57,849 bases of DNA from Stx2-converting phage Stx2a_WGPS6, in sequence record AP012539, one strand, 5' to 3'. This document shows, piece by piece, positions 9,001-15,000 of this stretch. The position numbers are program-made. Position 1 is the stretch's first letter, and each line of letters opens with the position of its first letter.

Positions 9001-12000
9001 CCCTGTTGATGCCAGTAATCCGGCTTCTTTTAGTCGCTCCGTATAGGCCAGTGACACATACTGAGAGCCTTTATCGCTGTGATGGATGGTGCCAGACGGA
9101 CGACGGGCCCACAACGCCTGCTCCAGCGCATCCAGCACGAATGTCGTTTCCATAGACGATGAGACCCGCCACCCCACGATGTATCCGGCAAACACATCAA
9201 TGATAAACGCCACATAGACGAAGCCCTGCCATGTGCTGACGTAAGTAAAATCAGCCACCCACAGCTGGTCAGGTCGTTCTGCCACGAACTGACGGTTTAC
9301 GCGGTCGCCTGCGGCAACGGCTTTCCGGCTGATGGTCGTACGGACCTTTTTACCCCGGAGAACACCGGCAAGTCCCATAACCGCCATGAGACGTGCCACT
9401 GTACATCTGGCCACCCTGATTCCTTCCCGTAACAACTGACGCCAGACTTTACGCACACCGTACACCTGATGATTTTCATCGTATACGCGCTGTATCTCTC
9501 TCTTCAGCCAGTCGTCGTGCTGCGCACGGGCACTGCGTTTATCCGGATGATGTCGCTGTTGCTGACAATGGTAATACGTTGACGGGGCAATATGCAGTTC
9601 GCTGCATACCGGTCCGACCCCGTACTGCTCACGCAGCTTATCCAGCAGTGGCATCATTTTTTCCAGAGGCGGTCGAACTCCGCCTTCGCAAAATAAGCGG
9701 AAGCCTGGCGAAGGATATCGTTACTGCGGCGCAGTTCACGATTTTCACGTTCCAGCTCTTTCAGACGCTGACGTTCAGCGCTGGTGAGCCCACCATCACC
9801 GCCCCCGGTATCCCGCTCATGCTGGCGAACCCAGACACGCAGAGTCTCCGGCGTACAGCCAATCTTTGGGGCAATGGAACAAATTGCCGCCCACTGTGAG
9901 TCATATTCATCCTGACTTTCCAGAACCATACGAATCGCCCGCTGACGGACTTCGGGGGAAAAACGAGTATTTTTAGTCATCCTGTTTACCTCTTTCTCAG
10001 GGAGTTTAGTCTCCAGGATTTCCGGGGCGGTTCATTTCCATCATTCCAGTCGAACTCACACACAACACCATATGCATTTAAGTCGCTTGAAATTGCTATA
10101 AGCAGAGCATGTTGCGCCAGCATGATTAATACAGCATTTAATAAAGAGCCGTGTTTATTGAGTCGGTATTCAGAGTCTGACCAGAAATTATTAATCTGGT
10201 GAAGTTTTTCCTCTGTCATTACGTCATGGTCGATTTCAATTTCTATTGATGCTTTCCAGTCGTAATCAATGATGTATTTTTTGATGTTTGACATCTGTTC
10301 ATATCCTCACAGATAAAAAATCGCCCTCACATTGGAGGGCAAAGAAGATTTCCAATAATCAGAACAAGTCGGCTCCTGTTTAGTTACGAGCGACATTGCT
10401 CCGTGTATTCACTCGTTGGAATGAATACACAGTGCTGTGTTTATTCTGTTGTTTATGCCAAAAATAAAGGCCACCATCAGGCAGCCTTGTTGTAAATGTT
10501 GCAGGTATCAAGTAAGTAATTAGATGGAGCGCCATAAATTATGAATTCATCGTTTGTCGGGTCCATCTCCATCTCTTGTCCTATTGCCATTCTTGCGTCA
10601 GTGTCGTCAGCGGCGAAGCATAAAACAGCCCACGCACCCATTGTTTTAAAAAGAACTGCAATTGGCTGTGGTTTTACTGAATTTGCGTTAGCGCGAAAAT
10701 CACAAATCGCACTTTCATGAAATTCCATATATCACCTCAAATAAGTGGTTTGCTGCCTAATTTCATTTTCTGGCGACCAACACAAGTCATCTTGCTGTCA
10801 GTTGTTTGGATTTACGGTAGCCTGCCGCGTAAAGAGCTACATTTGGAAGACAAGTTGAGCCTTCATATTTTCTGGTCAACGTTGTCAGTGTTATTACTTC
10901 TGCTCTCATTGCTGGTTTGCGTTTGCATTGTAAGACCACTCGTGATGGGGTTGGCCTGTGTAGTTTGTCGGAGCTAATCGCCTCCTGACTTTGCAGGTTT
11001 GCGCGACGAGCTCTACGGCGAGAAGCTGCGGTGCCTTTAAATTCTGTTTTTCTGGACATAGATTCCTCCCGAATAAACTTTGGCGATGCAATCTCGAAGC
11101 TCCTCCTGAGACGGTTGCTTCGGCATTGCATCCCACAGCTTATGTGGTTGGGTGATCTGGCTTTTCAGCCACGTAGTCGAGAGTCGACGTTGTTTAAAGA
11201 GCCTGCCAGTCTGTTCCATTTGGCTTCCAGCGTCCTGCTGATGGTTAAATAGTACGATATGTACTTCACTTGGTCAATACAATTTGTTCTAAAACGGGGC
11301 GTTTTTTTACAACGCTTTGTATTTAATAGTATTGTTTTTTAGCGTGGGTGTATTGCCTCGGCGAATGTAAGGAGAGATCAGAATTGCGTTGTTTAGTGAG
11401 TTGTATCTATTTATTTTCCAATAAATACAATTGGTTATGTGTTTTTTTTGGGCGAGAGGAAAAGAAAACCCGGCATGGAGGCCGGGTTGATGATTAGCGG
11501 TGTGGCCTTGAGCGATAATGCTCACACACATGTTCAAGATTTCCATGCCTTATCCGTTCATAGGCATTCACATGAACTTCTCGATCGAATTGGTCATTCA
11601 AATTGTATGTAGACATCTGTGTTTTCTCATATTGGCGGCAGCCCTACAACCGCTTGAAAAAATGTACCAGACGCGCTAAGGTTACATCGCAAATATTGTG
11701 TACCTTAACAAGGGCTCCTTTTGGAGGCTCTGGTTAAACAGCATCAATGTCGGACTGGGGGGTTGGACATTGTGCTGAATGCTTTTGCATTATTGAGGCC
11801 GAACGTAAACCTTCAGAATTGAAGAGATGCGTTCGGCTTCTTCGTTTGTGATATCGTTAGGAATGCCTTTAATCGTTACTGTAACCCCTGATTCAGGTCG
11901 AAGAACTACTGGAAGATCATAGGTATGAAGTGCATTAGCCTTGCCTTCGACTTTTGTTGGTTCGCCAGTCAAATCTTTTTCCTCACTGGATTCTTTGTCA

Positions 12001-15000
12001 ATCGGAGTGTATGGGATTTCTTCACCAGACTGGAAAGCTACAAACTTTTTGATTGCACTTTCCATGCGGCTTTTATATGCAGTAATGCTGCTGTCGCTAG
12101 GCTTCGGCTCAGTTGCGTTGATGTATCGCTCGGCAAGCTCATTCACATCAAGCTGAGTAACATCACCCATTTCCTCTTCTTGGACTACCGTTAAGAGGCG
12201 AGCGGATGAGTTTTTTAAATTTCGAGCGGTGGCCTCCTTCATTATGTTCAGCGACATAAGCTCTTCAAGGAAGTCCTTGAATGCCTGCACGCTAACGTTT
12301 GACTTTGCCATTTGCTCTCTCTCTAAGTTATTGACTCAGATCGAGTTTATCCAGGAATTGATTTGCATGCAAGACTCAAGTCTTGAGAATTTCCGTTCAA
12401 GATCCACTCTCAATAAAAAAGGCCGCACCTCTGCGACCTTTCATCTCCTAAATCTCTTTTCTCTTACCTAAAGAAACAGCAGGCTGGGTCAGCCCTAACA
12501 ACTTCAAGTGCATCGGTCAGAGAAAGCTCCGTGCTATACAGGTGTTATTTCATATCTTTTTGCATCCAATAAATTTTCCATCTGTCCAGAGAGCGGATGC
12601 ACTTGATTCTTGTTGATGGCAGGACGTTTTTTCACCTGCCTCACCCTGCCATACAGGACGCTGCTCACCGATATCTATCGTCCGGTCATTGATGTTATAG
12701 ACAATATCCAGATCATTACGGATATACTCAGATGGCCTTATGCTTTCAATGAATAGATGAACTTCTTTTTGACCGCTTGATACTCATGGCCATTAAACTC
12801 CATCTATCCTCTTTACCCAAACGTCTCTTCAGGCCATTGGCTGGCGATAACTTTCCCCACAACGGAACAACTCTCATTGCATGGGATCATTGGATATTGC
12901 GGGTTTAGTGGTTGTAGAAACACCTGACCGCTATCCCTGATCAGTTTCTTGAAGGTAAATTCATCACCACCAAGTCTGGCTATGCAGAAATCGCCGGGCT
13001 CAACAGCTTGCTCAGGGTCAACCAGAATTAACATCCCGTCAGGAAAACTAGGTTTGGAACCTGTTGGTGCGGTCATTGAGTTACCTTCAACCTCAAGCCA
13101 GAATGCAGAGTCACTGGCTTTTTTGGTTGTGCTTACCAATCTCTCCGCATCACCTTTGGTAAAGGTTCTGAGTTCTGGAGAGAACATCCCAGCCTGAACA
13201 TGAGAAAAAACAGGGTACTCATATTGTTTTTTAACTGGGGCCGATGAGTATTCGCCAACAGGTGAAAATGTCCCGTCGTGGTTGAATGATATGTTATCAA
13301 TACCAAGGTATTTAAACACCACACCAATATCACTAAGAGATGGATGACGAGATCCGCGCAACCAGTGTCCAATTCCACCCTGCGTCATACCTAGCTCTTC
13401 GGCTAACTTCTCTTGAGTTATGCCGAGCTCTTTCATTCTGGATCTAGCCAGTTCATACCATTTCATTTTCATGTCCTTATTATTACGCTCTGTACTGGAA
13501 CCATCCATGCACAATGTGTATTTTTACTTGTATTTGAGAAGTACATATTGTATTTTTTATTCGTGGTTACTATGGAGGGCATATGAGCAACCTACGAAAA
13601 TATCGAGAGTCACTGAATATCTCTCAAACAACACTTGCTAAGGCAGTTGGATGCACACAGGGAGCTATCGGACATTGGGAATCTGGTCGTCGCTTCCCAG
13701 ACCTTAAAACATGCCGTGCTCTTGTTGCGTGTCTAAACAAGTTAGGCGCAAAAGTAAGTCTTGATGACGTGTTCCCGCCGGAGCACAAAGCCGCTTAATA
13801 AGCGGAGCCGCTCTTTGTAACAACGGACATTCGTCCTACGTCGCTGAAAAGCGAGTCCCAAGATATCTGACCAACTAAGGCCATATGCGTTTCCACGCAT
13901 ACCTTTCAACTAACTATTCACTATTGGAAATCTTAAGAAATGGAACGAACAAGTTACAGCAAACTATCACAGCGCGACGTTGATCGCGCAGAAACAGATT
14001 TACTCATCAACCTGTCAACGCTTACACAGCGCGGTCTGGCAAAGATGATTGGCTGTCATGAATCGAAGATAAGCAGAACGGACTGGCGGTTTATTGCTTC
14101 GGTCTTGTGTGCTTTCGGAATGGCATCAGACATCAGTCCGATTAGCAGGGCTTTTAAGTATGCGCTTGATGAAATCACAAAGAAAAAATCCCCGGCTGCC
14201 ACCGAGGATTTTAAGCAAATTGATATGCAATTCTGAGGGAATTACTGGATCAATCCACAGGAGTAATTATGACAAAACGTCGTAAGAAATACCAGGAAAA
14301 AGAAGAGATTCGACACCCTGATTCACCTGAGGGATTAGTGGTAGCCGCAGCAAATAACAGGGCGTTCGCAGAGCGCCTTGTTGGTGTTTACAGACTAGCC
14401 AAAGCAGGAGTGAAACATGGGCGTCGTTAAGTTAGCTGATTACAGGCCTCAACTGGAGGTCGTGGAGCATCGCGTGGCAGATACCGAAGATGGTTTCATG
14501 CGCGTTGCTAACGAGATTACCGACAGTCTGCTGATGGCTGATTTAACCGTCCGGCAGTTGAAGGTGATGCTCGCTATCATGCGCAAGACATACGGATTCA
14601 ATAAGCCGATGGATCGACTCACAAACACGCAGATAGCAGCCATGACAGGTATTCATCACACTCATGTTTGCGCTGCCAAGCGCCAGCTTATTGAGCGTAA
14701 ATTCCTCATTGCTGATGGCGTGAAAATCGGAGTGAACAAGGTGGTTTCTCAGTGGATTAGCCAGGACAGCTTAACATTAGCTAAAACAGCTAATAAAACA
14801 TTAGCCAAGTCGGCTAATGGGTATAAGCCAAGTCAGCTAAACACAAAAGACAATATACAAAAGACAATAAATACAAATACCCCCTTACCCCCTAACGGGG
14901 ATGGCGATGGGCAGGTTAAACCTGAACGTCGCAAGGCAGAACGAATCGACTACGAATCCTTCCTGAACGCCTACAACACCGAAGTCGGTGACAGACTTCC

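Follow-up and report, generated by a model that had tools for sequence, protein, structure and literature searches.

Lambda rexAB, 933W stk, and BTP1 bstA are morons of the phage immunity region. Prophages of the Sp5 type carry stx2a in Escherichia coli O157:H7, and their toxin output depends on prophage induction. This study analyzed a 57,849-nt stretch of Stx2-converting phage Stx2a_WGPS6 (AP012539; hereafter, the window), in which an earlier note had reported an acidic 173-aa ORF between cI and pL. The ORF was confirmed as a real gene at 11790..12311 (pI 4.85, net charge -8); it corresponds to ECs1184 of strain Sakai, and its host prophage is a Stx prophage of the Sp5/VT2-Sakai type (identity 99.8%). 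Flanked by cI and OL/pL-N, the gene occupies the position of rexAB in lambda. Similar to rexAB, stk, and bstA, it is located between the repressor gene and pL, has its own terminator, and, on indirect evidence, is expressed in the lysogen. The locus comprises the following features:

about 10787..11062, minus strand: N gene (PF25694)
equivalent of about 11250..11325: OL/pL, by annotation in AP005153
11467..11488, minus strand: downstream intrinsic terminator, closing the cassette ahead of OL/pL (terminator scan; fold -14.3 kcal/mol, z -4.8)
11494..11616, minus strand: orf40, encoding the 40-aa hydrophilic, His/Arg-rich protein MSTYNLNDQFDREVHVNAYERIRHGNLEHVCEHYRSRPHR (codon changes, phrog_21154)
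11617..11738, minus strand: highly constrained non-coding spacer from the hairpin to the small gene (E. coli/Salmonella identity)
11739..11777, minus strand: strong hairpin without a U-tract, right after the ECs1184 stop codon (fold -19 kcal/mol, z -5.3)
11790..12311, minus strand: 173-aa protein gene (Sakai ECs1184, VT2-Sakai orf22/Sap23, WP_001130059)
12344..12372, minus strand: sigma-70-type promoter (-35 TTGCAT at 12372..12367, 17-nt spacer, -10 TAAACT at 12349..12344; read from the sequence)
12370..12402: candidate operator with three CAAGA/TCTTG half-sites, overlapping and lying upstream of the -35
12370..12385: inverted repeat CAAGAC-N4-GTCTTG, part of the candidate operator
12381..12402: inverted repeat TCTTGA-N10-TCAAGA, part of the candidate operator
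12339 and 12401: GATC sites near the candidate operator
12417..12442, minus strand: upstream intrinsic terminator AGGTCGCAGAGGTGCGGCCTTTTTT (RNA fold -15.9 kcal/mol, z -2.9)
12813..13514, minus strand: cI (Peptidase_S24 and HTH)

The proposal of an autonomous moron at the rexAB position was borne out, with a conserved promoter of its own and terminators on both flanks. The earlier statement that no family is recognizable was contradicted by a profile search, in which the protein matched phrog_2602 over residues 1-173 (E 3.5e-102), and by weak integrase SAM-like signals in a domain-profile search. Both phrog_2602 and phrog_21154 are annotated 'unknown function', and the protein had no significant match in Pfam, NCBIfam, or PADLOC. 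The locus had also been put forward as the best candidate for an undescribed system; this stands insofar as no characterized family claims ECs1184, but the gene is already in the literature through a deletion attempt. No further literature on WP_001130059 or the adjoining locus tags was found. ECs1184 is a known yet uncharacterized gene, and its function is still to be proven.

The promoter is weak compared with the consensus (7/12) and was absent from the promoter-scan output. Its position and spacing are conserved in E. coli, Salmonella (TTGCAT-17-TAAACT), Proteus (TTGCAA-17-TAGAAT), and Serratia (TTGACT-17-AAAAAT), with better hexamers in the latter two genera. Because the equivalent position is conserved in the other three genera, the candidate promoter, which the earlier note had already proposed, is more than a chance match. 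The -35 in SH2026Stx1 and Klebsiella also lies within a CTTGA half-site. The two palindromes previously noted over the promoter, TTGCATGCAA (12363..12372) and CTCAAGTCTTGAG (12376..12388), are both present, but the elements under conservation are CTTGA/TCAAG half-sites rather than these palindromes: TTGCATGCAA is replaced by TTGCATATGAA in Salmonella and by TTGCAAATCT in Proteus, and dozens of palindromes of such sizes are expected in 58 kb. The claim that the promoter is overlapped by inverted repeats unlike the cI operators holds instead for the operator-like repeats listed above. Each of them occurs once in the 57.8-kb window, and none of 100 shuffles contained the N10 repeat. All 11 differences between E. 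coli and Salmonella across the operator stretch fall outside the half-sites. In eight family upstream regions, CTTGA/TCAAG was observed 15 times against 2.0 expected, a 7-fold enrichment in family promoters, and none of 5000 shuffles reached 15.

ECs1184 is not a single-gene unit, as previously supposed, given that the unit also includes a 40-aa gene, itself conserved, and the constrained spacer. Because the downstream terminator comes after this second, previously unnoticed gene, we describe the locus as a two-gene cassette. The minus-strand terminators suspected on both sides of ECs1184 were located upstream at about 12417..12442 and downstream at 11467..11488. A near-identical copy of the upstream terminator lies 5' of the homologous gene in the Salmonella, Proteus, and Serratia loci, and its sequence predicts that it insulates the cassette from cI/pRM transcription. 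The downstream terminator is also found 3' of the small ORF in SH2026Stx1 and Klebsiella. Homology between E. coli and Salmonella begins at the upstream terminator and stops at 11462; within it, identity reaches 97.6% in the spacer, 92.5% in orf40, and 82% in the 173-aa CDS. The predicted fold of the spacer pairs the orf40 ribosome-binding region weakly (z -2.2). The hairpin after the stop codon probably acts as an attenuator or RNA-stability element. The 14 nt at its center run in opposite orientations in the E. coli and Salmonella lineages; this orientation is lineage-fixed in 31 copies, with no sign of phase variation. No Rfam family was found within 11000..13000 or in the downstream regions of the relatives. 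Between cI and N, the cassette sits alongside differing cI and N types, and a DUF3024 gene or a 345-aa ORF is sometimes inserted beside it.

Compared with Salmonella, the orf40 frame shows six synonymous and two non-synonymous codon changes, which argues that orf40 is a real gene under purifying selection. It matches phrog_21154 (E 5e-8), and the SH2026Stx1 homologue was matched at E 1.9e-31. The antisense frame VT2-Sap22 (11518..11679, plus strand) was rejected as coding, with two synonymous and seven non-synonymous changes. Homologues of orf40 sit 3' of diverged large-gene relatives in SH2026Stx1 and Klebsiella prophages, and the pair of a large gene and a type-A small gene recurs with large proteins 40-42% identical in a Stx1 phage and a non-lambdoid Klebsiella prophage. 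The type of small ORF (A, B, or C) is not in step with large-protein phylogeny. Unrelated small ORFs accompany large proteins that share 93-96% identity in the C-domain (Salmonella A versus Proteus B; Erwinia B versus L037 C), and no small ORF is evident beside the alphaproteobacterial homologues, so that the small peptide cannot be a partner throughout the family.

The 173-aa protein was divided as follows:

residues 8-94: core-binding/SAM-like four-helix domain
residues 102-128: disordered acidic linker
residues 130-165: beta-hairpin and helix domain

The four-helix domain corresponds to the N-terminal core-binding domain of the tyrosine recombinases. Their catalytic domain, with its R-K-H-R-H/W-Y site (PF00589), had no match in the ECs1184 protein or in 46 relatives; the protein ends at residue 173, and its last 45 residues are predicted to fold as a beta-hairpin and helix (pLDDT 91.6). 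This C-terminal domain had no fold match. PDB sequence searches with family profiles and a BFVD fold search returned nothing significant, and profile comparison revealed no detectable relation to the window's own integrase (probability 0.6%). Throughout the family, each folded domain is net acidic or neutral, which is unusual among DNA binders. No enzymatic, membrane, nucleotide-binding, or known effector domain was found in the protein.

The family comprises 661 clusters at 50% identity. Among the best 150 of the 661, all proteins are about 110-240 aa and nearly all 160-205 aa, and the architecture described above is common to them. The cassette is mobile: family members occupy lambdoid immunity regions, a tail-region moron site in Erwinia, a non-lambdoid Klebsiella prophage, and alphaproteobacterial chromosomes. 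A multi-stem element of about 105 nt with compensatory pairs follows the gene in Erwinia, Proteus, Serratia, and L037. A covariance model of this RNA gave no match in the window, Salmonella, SH2026Stx1, or the alphaproteobacterial loci, and therefore the window spacer differs from this element. The alphaproteobacterial loci carry a long downstream hairpin with an invariant UUCCAACC loop, even though their proteins are only 36-53% identical. Homology between this loop and the window loop TCCAACCCC was rejected because the 9-mer match depends on a window-specific SNP; the loop is CAACTCCCC in 20 of the 21 copies of the E. coli type. When metagenome contigs were scanned for the exact pattern of the alphaproteobacterial hairpin, the 13 matches obtained were due to chance and lacked both a hairpin and a family gene, and a scan of genome contigs returned a single locus only.

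An attempt to delete ORF23 (ECs1184) from an Sp5 lysogen by allelic exchange failed and was judged lethal, and the authors concluded that the gene is needed for stable lysogeny (PMC5155283). The failure may have been technical. ORF21 (ECs1180), located near ORF23, was equally refractory to deletion (PMC5155283); it was dismissed as a partner of ECs1184 for want of co-occurrence with the family elsewhere. Uninduced Sakai cultures yielded the ECs1184 protein in TRAPP mass spectrometry (PMC7618764), indirect evidence that the cassette is expressed in the repressed prophage. The prophage sRNA svsR (PMC12803456) maps to the 3' end of cI and has no relation to the cassette. In three sequenced O157 strains, all of them viable, IS629/IS1203 separates the -10 from the start codon; thus, either strong expression from the native promoter can be dispensed with or those prophages are defective.

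The best explanation that we can offer, which we hold tentatively, is a gatekeeper cassette that regulates itself and is toxic when lost. The two genes, bracketed by terminators, would be transcribed leftward in the lysogen from their own promoter. The 173-aa product would be a small oligomeric nucleic-acid-binding regulator, in which the beta-hairpin/helix domain probably mediates dimerization and the flexible linker joins it to the core-binding-like four-helix domain. By binding the inverted CTTGA/TCAAG repeats that overlap the -35 of its gene, the protein would limit its own transcription. Unchecked transcription would pass the hairpin after the stop codon and the constrained spacer and enter the gene of the 40-aa peptide, and a leak past the downstream terminator would reach pL-N. 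Loss of the protein may then release a harmful output, namely small-peptide overproduction and/or cI-independent read-through into N and kil, which would account for the failure to delete the ORF by itself from Sp5 lysogens. The prophage might gain stable lysogeny or addiction, possibly with exclusion of other phages. Consistent with such a gatekeeper, the promoter and terminators are kept across E. coli, Salmonella, Proteus, and Serratia, the operator-like repeats are unique in the window and enriched family-wide, the C-domain is confidently predicted, orf40 is under purifying selection, the spacer is conserved above either CDS, and the large/small pair recurs in other phages; the failed deletion (PMC5155283) and the protein in uninduced Sakai cells (PMC7618764) also favor it. 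The acidic or neutral folded domains, the swapping of small ORFs, and the viable IS629/IS1203 strains speak against it, as do the possibly technical failure of deletion and the equally refractory ORF21.

Several features of the locus suit other explanations. The rexAB position, the autonomous promoter, and the presence of the protein in uninduced cells would fit anti-phage defense or superinfection exclusion, the reading favored in the earlier note, in which the lysogen-expressed cassette blocks other phages, the 173-aa protein senses or inhibits a phage component, and the small peptide is perhaps the effector. The Klebsiella cassette adjoins an Imm_superinfect gene, a homologue on metagenomic contigs lies amid BrnT/BrnA, DUF433, and DUF4258 toxin-antitoxin genes, and the variable small ORFs look like swappable effectors. 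We nevertheless consider defense rather unlikely: neither the 173-aa nor the 40-aa protein had a PADLOC-DB v2 family at E <= 1, enzymatic, membrane, and nucleotide-binding domains are missing, and the distant homologues are orphan chromosomal genes adjoining uvrB, lepA, and phn genes. Genes for defense can normally be deleted, whereas ECs1184 could not, and its resistance to deletion suggests lysogen maintenance or addiction no less than defense. The metagenomic toxin-antitoxin island, the promoter palindromes, the non-deletable upstream gene (PMC5155283), and the order of an acidic gene followed by a small His/Arg-rich gene could also indicate a classical type II toxin-antitoxin pair, with the 173-aa protein neutralizing the basic peptide by direct binding. 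That reading is very improbable, given the approximately 175 nt and strong hairpin between the genes, the lack of a match to any known toxin or antitoxin family, and the alphaproteobacterial homologues without a small ORF; near-identical C-domains (93-96%) paired with unrelated small ORFs depart from partner specificity.

A protein that binds structured RNA just 3' of its own gene, or host RNAs, and controls downstream translation or stability would explain why a conserved structured sequence directly follows the stop codon in every lineage, in three element classes, and TRAPP enrichment fell just below significance (FDR 0.065; PMC7618764). We judge RNA binding quite unlikely: the tagged protein gave the same PNK labelling signal as the GFP control (PMC7618764), the three classes lack detectable homology, and inversion of the center of the window-type hairpin between lineages would destroy an RNA loop motif. 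The link drawn between non-deletability and stable lysogeny (PMC5155283), together with the constant place directly upstream of OL/pL-N in E. coli, Salmonella, Serratia, and Proteus prophages, could instead reflect an accessory lysis-lysogeny regulator, that is, a second repressor or modulator acting at pL/OL, N-nutL, or cI stability, whose loss induces the prophage. This is improbable, since the operator-like repeats occur only at the cassette's own promoter in the 57.8-kb window, close relatives stand beside cI of at least four types and beside N proteins that share only 38-40% identity, and the cassette also occupies the Erwinia, Klebsiella, and alphaproteobacterial sites named above.

The gatekeeper proposal offers a concrete explanation for a published, unexplained lethality. 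Through the present analysis, what was an anonymous ORF is now a defined cassette with a promoter, operator half-sites, a hairpin, a constrained spacer, and a 40-aa gene. A lysogen-expressed prophage gene that cannot be removed would offer a direct means of influencing lysogen stability and, through it, toxin release. A broader reading, which we consider unlikely as it stands, is that ECs1184-type cassettes form an unrecognized class of mobile gatekeeper modules, in which a core-binding derivative without a catalytic domain, joined to a novel beta-hairpin/helix domain, would recognize inverted repeats and/or structured nucleic acid beside its own gene and restrain a swappable small effector or read-through. 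If this is true, lysogens of Stx prophages would need such a module for viability, and the module might also trigger abortive infection.

In the family, a recombinase DNA-binding domain persists without its enzyme. The core-binding domain resembles that of tyrosine recombinases (lambda Int, XerD, IntI4, and XerA; PDB 3nrw, 2a3v, 5hxy, and 2oxo), but the ECs1184 domain is net acidic, the catalytic domain is missing, and a different, beta-hairpin/helix domain forms the C-terminus. The recombinase-derived repressors MrpR of SPbeta (PDB 8a0a) and SroF of Phi3T on DNA (PDB 9rd5) retain the whole two-domain fold of about 320 aa and are master repressors, whereas ECs1184 has the core-binding-like domain only and the repressor of its prophage is the LexA-type cI. 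With type II toxin-antitoxin systems, the cassette shares an autoregulation-like palindromic promoter, an acidic non-deletable first gene, a small basic second gene, and carriage on mobile elements. It differs in its long structured spacer, its independently swapped second gene, and the lack of a known toxin fold, and many family members have no second gene. We know of no exclusion phenotype of the cassette. It has no sequence or domain similarity to rexAB, stk, or bstA and carries no membrane component, kinase, or nuclease; neither cassette protein matched RexA or RexB in Pfam, PHROG, or NCBIfam, and both products are hydrophilic, with no hydrophobic span in their sequences. Unlike rexAB, the cassette has its own promoter and a terminator predicted to insulate it from cI.

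The 173-aa ORF of the window corresponded to Sakai ECs1184 (VT2-Sakai orf22/Sap23, WP_001130059), and the 1.7 kb around it was 99.8% identical to VT2-Sakai (Sp5), the Stx1/Stx2 phages of strain Morioka V526, Nil2, 1717, 2851, and the PA-series Stx2a phages. Of 5426 complete E. coli genomes, 234 matched the region, and nearly all of these were O157:H7. Only three differences separated the window from O157 strain TR01: single-base insertions at 11364 and 11442, both in the pL-proximal spacer, and a G/A change at 11761, which falls in the loop of a hairpin following the ECs1184 stop codon; the loop variant CAACCCCCC occurred in 0 of 20 other E. 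coli-type copies. The layout of the window was lambdoid:

10787..11062 (approximate), minus strand: N, PF25694 match
11250..11325 (approximate equivalent): OL/pL, from the deposited annotation of AP005153
11790..12311, minus strand: ECs1184 ORF, 173 aa
12813..13514, minus strand: cI, Peptidase_S24 and HTH domains
13583..13798, plus strand: cro
13940..14236, plus strand: CII homologue

Because the ORF lies between cI and OL/pL-N, it occupies the position of lambda rexAB; the earlier note had placed it there, and the flanking cI, N, and OL/pL annotation agrees. The note's description of the protein as acidic was also correct (pI 4.85). A decayed DUF3024 gene, split into two frames with an internal stop, was located between cI and the ECs1184 unit (12470-12771, minus strand); it was 81-85% identical to an intact 113-aa gene of phage SH2026Stx1, and Proteus prophages carried intact DUF3024 genes in the equivalent slot. 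A Salmonella prophage (L009, 5861-6064, minus strand) and a Serratia prophage (L007, 5871-6047, minus strand) encoded, between the unit and pL-N and on the strand opposite to it, a small acidic ORF of 58-67 aa that had a conserved IEMI...VDLAVE motif and was absent from the window. Elsewhere in the window, Rfam matches revealed c4-a1b1, isrK, and C4 antisense RNA at 18707-18905 (plus strand). Together they form an antisense-RNA module of the P1/P7 type; such modules control an antirepressor, which makes this a second immunity-like circuit in the prophage. Rfam also identified three tRNA genes followed by the sRNA STnc100 (23095-23341 and 24752-24963, plus strand) and two sRNA-Xcc1 copies (2913-3001, minus strand; 19433-19516, plus strand).

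The ECs1184 unit contained the following elements:

12381..12402: inverted repeat TCTTGA-N10-TCAAGA
12370..12385: inverted repeat CAAGAC-N4-GTCTTG
12372..12367 and 12349..12344, minus strand: promoter, -35 TTGCAT, 17-nt spacer, -10 TAAACT
12339 and 12401: GATC sites, also found in the upstream regions of loci L017, L021, L037, and L069
11739..11777: post-stop hairpin, -19 kcal/mol, z -5.3, without a U-tract (RNA fold)
11494..11616, minus strand: orf40, a 40-aa ORF matching phrog_21154
11467..11488: strong downstream terminator (terminator scan, RNA fold)

The promoter, which the earlier note had proposed as a candidate for the gene, was present as described. Its hexamers matched 7 of 12 consensus positions, and it was not among the promoters listed by the scan tool. 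In homologous loci of other genera, the promoter was equally placed, 17-nt spacing was retained, and a conserved leader followed in all; the hexamers were identical in Salmonella, TTGCAA/TAGAAT in Proteus, and TTGACT/AAAAAT in Serratia. The conservation of position and spacing across genera provides phylogenetic support for a real promoter. The terminators proposed on both sides were likewise recovered, and the upstream terminator AGGTCGCAGARRTGCGGCCTTTTTT was almost invariant across all four genera. The two perfect palindromes that had been described over the promoter were present, but each was at chance level and TTGCATGCAA was not conserved.

The conserved signal at the promoter was a set of CAAGA/TCTTG half-sites. 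Both inverted repeats occurred once each in the 57.8-kb window, and E. coli and Salmonella differed at 11 points over the repeat stretch, all of them between half-sites. Eight upstream regions of the family contained 15 copies of CTTGA/TCAAG, against 2.0 expected; one copy is the -35 itself, and the promoter consensus does not account for the upstream inverted partners. GATC and CGATC were also enriched, with 20 CGATC in eight 120-nt family promoter regions and up to four GATC within a single region, which suggests that expression is Dam- or SeqA-sensitive.

The unit proved to be a two-gene cassette. Salmonella prophages matched it precisely from the upstream terminator as far as 11462, immediately beyond the downstream terminator, and homology with Proteus covered the promoter and CDS only. 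The central 14 nt of the post-stop hairpin ran in opposite orientations in the E. coli and Salmonella lineages; across 31 copies, the orientation was fixed by lineage. E. coli and Salmonella shared 97.6% identity in the 122-nt spacer 3' of the hairpin but only 82% in the 173-aa CDS. The orf40 frame showed 6 synonymous and 2 non-synonymous codon changes in the same comparison, and the annotated antisense ORF VT2-Sap22 showed 2 and 7, respectively. Homologues of orf40, sharing the motif Y-x-R-I-R-x-G-x-L-E-H-V-x-x-H-x-R-S-x-P, were identified 3' of family members in two other elements, phage SH2026Stx1 and a non-lambdoid Klebsiella prophage that has a DUF927 primase and an Imm_superinfect neighbor; spacing was kept at approximately 170 nt, followed by the same terminator as in the window. 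The large proteins of these two loci are only 40-42% identical to ECs1184. The recurrence of both genes in this arrangement shows that the pair travels together.

Structured sequence also followed the gene in other family members. The Erwinia, Proteus, and Serratia members and the metagenomic locus L037 carried a different conserved multi-stem element of approximately 105 nt directly after the stop codon, modeled with 29 base pairs and compensatory changes, without an Rfam match and absent from the window. Distant alphaproteobacterial members, whose proteins were just 36-53% identical to one another, had a long hairpin with an invariant UUCCAACC loop (GUCCAAACC in L039), seven compensatory stem pairs, and a 3' CCACAC; their promoters contained repeated TTGACG motifs. 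The locus coordinates were as follows:

L003 5524-5633, L007 5542-5645, L017 6429-6535, L037 3560-3665: multi-stem element
L016 6595-6645, L018 6610-6665, L020 6665-6715, and the downstream regions of L039 and L041: alphaproteobacterial hairpin

No homology was detectable among the three classes of element; conserved structured sequence lies next to the gene in every class and is therefore a family trait.

A full profile search returned 661 clusters at 50% identity. Among the 150 best matches listed, lengths were approximately 110-240 aa, nearly all 160-205 aa, and the profile match was end-to-end in nearly all. Close members came from prophages of E. coli, Salmonella, Serratia, and Proteus/Providencia/Morganella, where they were invariably flanked by a cI-type repressor and N and were combined with at least four cI types. 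One family member lay at a moron site in the tail-fibre region of an Erwinia prophage. Distant members (21-31% identity) either stood alone in alphaproteobacterial chromosomes, as orphan genes next to uvrB, lepA, or phn genes, or lay inside a toxin-antitoxin island.

In the AlphaFold model of ECs1184 (27 homologues), residues 8-94 formed a confidently predicted four-helix N-domain (pLDDT about 90) and residues 102-128 a disordered acidic linker; the C-terminal domain was a beta-hairpin and helix, which reached a pLDDT of 91.6 when modeled by itself. The predicted fold is consistent with sub-threshold Pfam SAM-like matches and with two source annotations, "XerD" or "integrase"; ECs1184 lacked a catalytic domain, and comparison with the prophage's own Int (228..1406) detected no relation. 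Y79, R82, R138, P151, and E158 were invariant among 46 diverse members. Throughout the family, both folded domains were acidic or neutral; the linker alone ranged from acidic to basic. The C-terminal domain was also annotated alone as a 63-aa protein in many Salmonella, Citrobacter, and Enterobacter genomes (the cluster of P0049, including P0198 and P0194, the latter on 311 contigs) and was matched by phrog_36396; either gene truncation or a stand-alone domain could account for these proteins.

Working in a K-12 lysogen, Mondal et al. (PMC5155283) attempted marker-free in-frame deletion of every unknown gene of Sp5 and failed only for ORF21 (ECs1180) and ORF23 (ECs1184), concluding that their loss is probably lethal and that both are probably needed for stable lysogeny. 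ECs1180 (10477-10728, minus strand, 83 aa, phrog_2471) lies just downstream of N and did not co-occur with ECs1184 homologues in the other loci examined. The earlier note's observation is real and merits follow-up, but the gene was already named, though uncharacterized, with a published unexplained phenotype. A natural counter-example is provided by IS629/IS1203 insertions between the -10 and the start codon (window-equivalent 12339..12341) in three O157 genomes, 644-PT8, 180-PT54, and NJS001; this element (L023, 2631-3950) is a second copy with target duplication GAT, which moved the native promoter 1.3 kb away. The window itself carries an IS3-family element (8767-9980, minus strand; orfA/orfB, ALIL frameshift pseudoknot 9583-9699) in the ea10/DUF2528 gene, and the same insertion is annotated IS1203 in 644-PT8.

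The most economical model, which we put forward tentatively, is an autoregulated gatekeeper. Here the ECs1184 protein, which probably dimerizes through its beta-hairpin/helix domain, would occupy the inverted repeats that overlap its -35 and so hold leftward transcription down; unchecked, this transcription would pass through the hairpin into orf40 and, beyond a leaky terminator, continue towards pL-N-kil. Deleting the ORF in frame would leave the promoter and everything downstream intact, and the released output would explain the reported lethality with no trans-acting role elsewhere. The lack of a second operator-like site in the window fits this model, in which we infer the DNA binding, dimerization, repression, and toxicity alike.

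Rival readings overlap with the gatekeeper model and with each other. Defence or exclusion, which the earlier note had favored and which the rexAB-like position recalls, appears unlikely beside the failed deletion. RNA binding by ECs1184 at its own 3' element is more doubtful. A 2025 NAR paper (PMC7618764) recovered the protein among the RNA-associated proteins of uninduced Sakai (FDR 0.065), and its crosslinked-RNA end-labelling was no stronger than that of GFP; our literature search found no further papers mentioning ECs1184. A role as an accessory lysogeny regulator, close to the conclusion of Mondal et al., is slightly less probable again.

The present analysis defines the architecture, family, and cis elements of ECs1184. 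The small-ORF slot held a 57-aa basic protein (phrog_33859) in Proteus and Erwinia and a zinc-ribbon-like protein in Serratia and L037. These small-ORF types do not track the large-protein phylogeny, which argues against a co-evolving protein pair; a classical type II toxin-antitoxin pair is the least probable of these readings.
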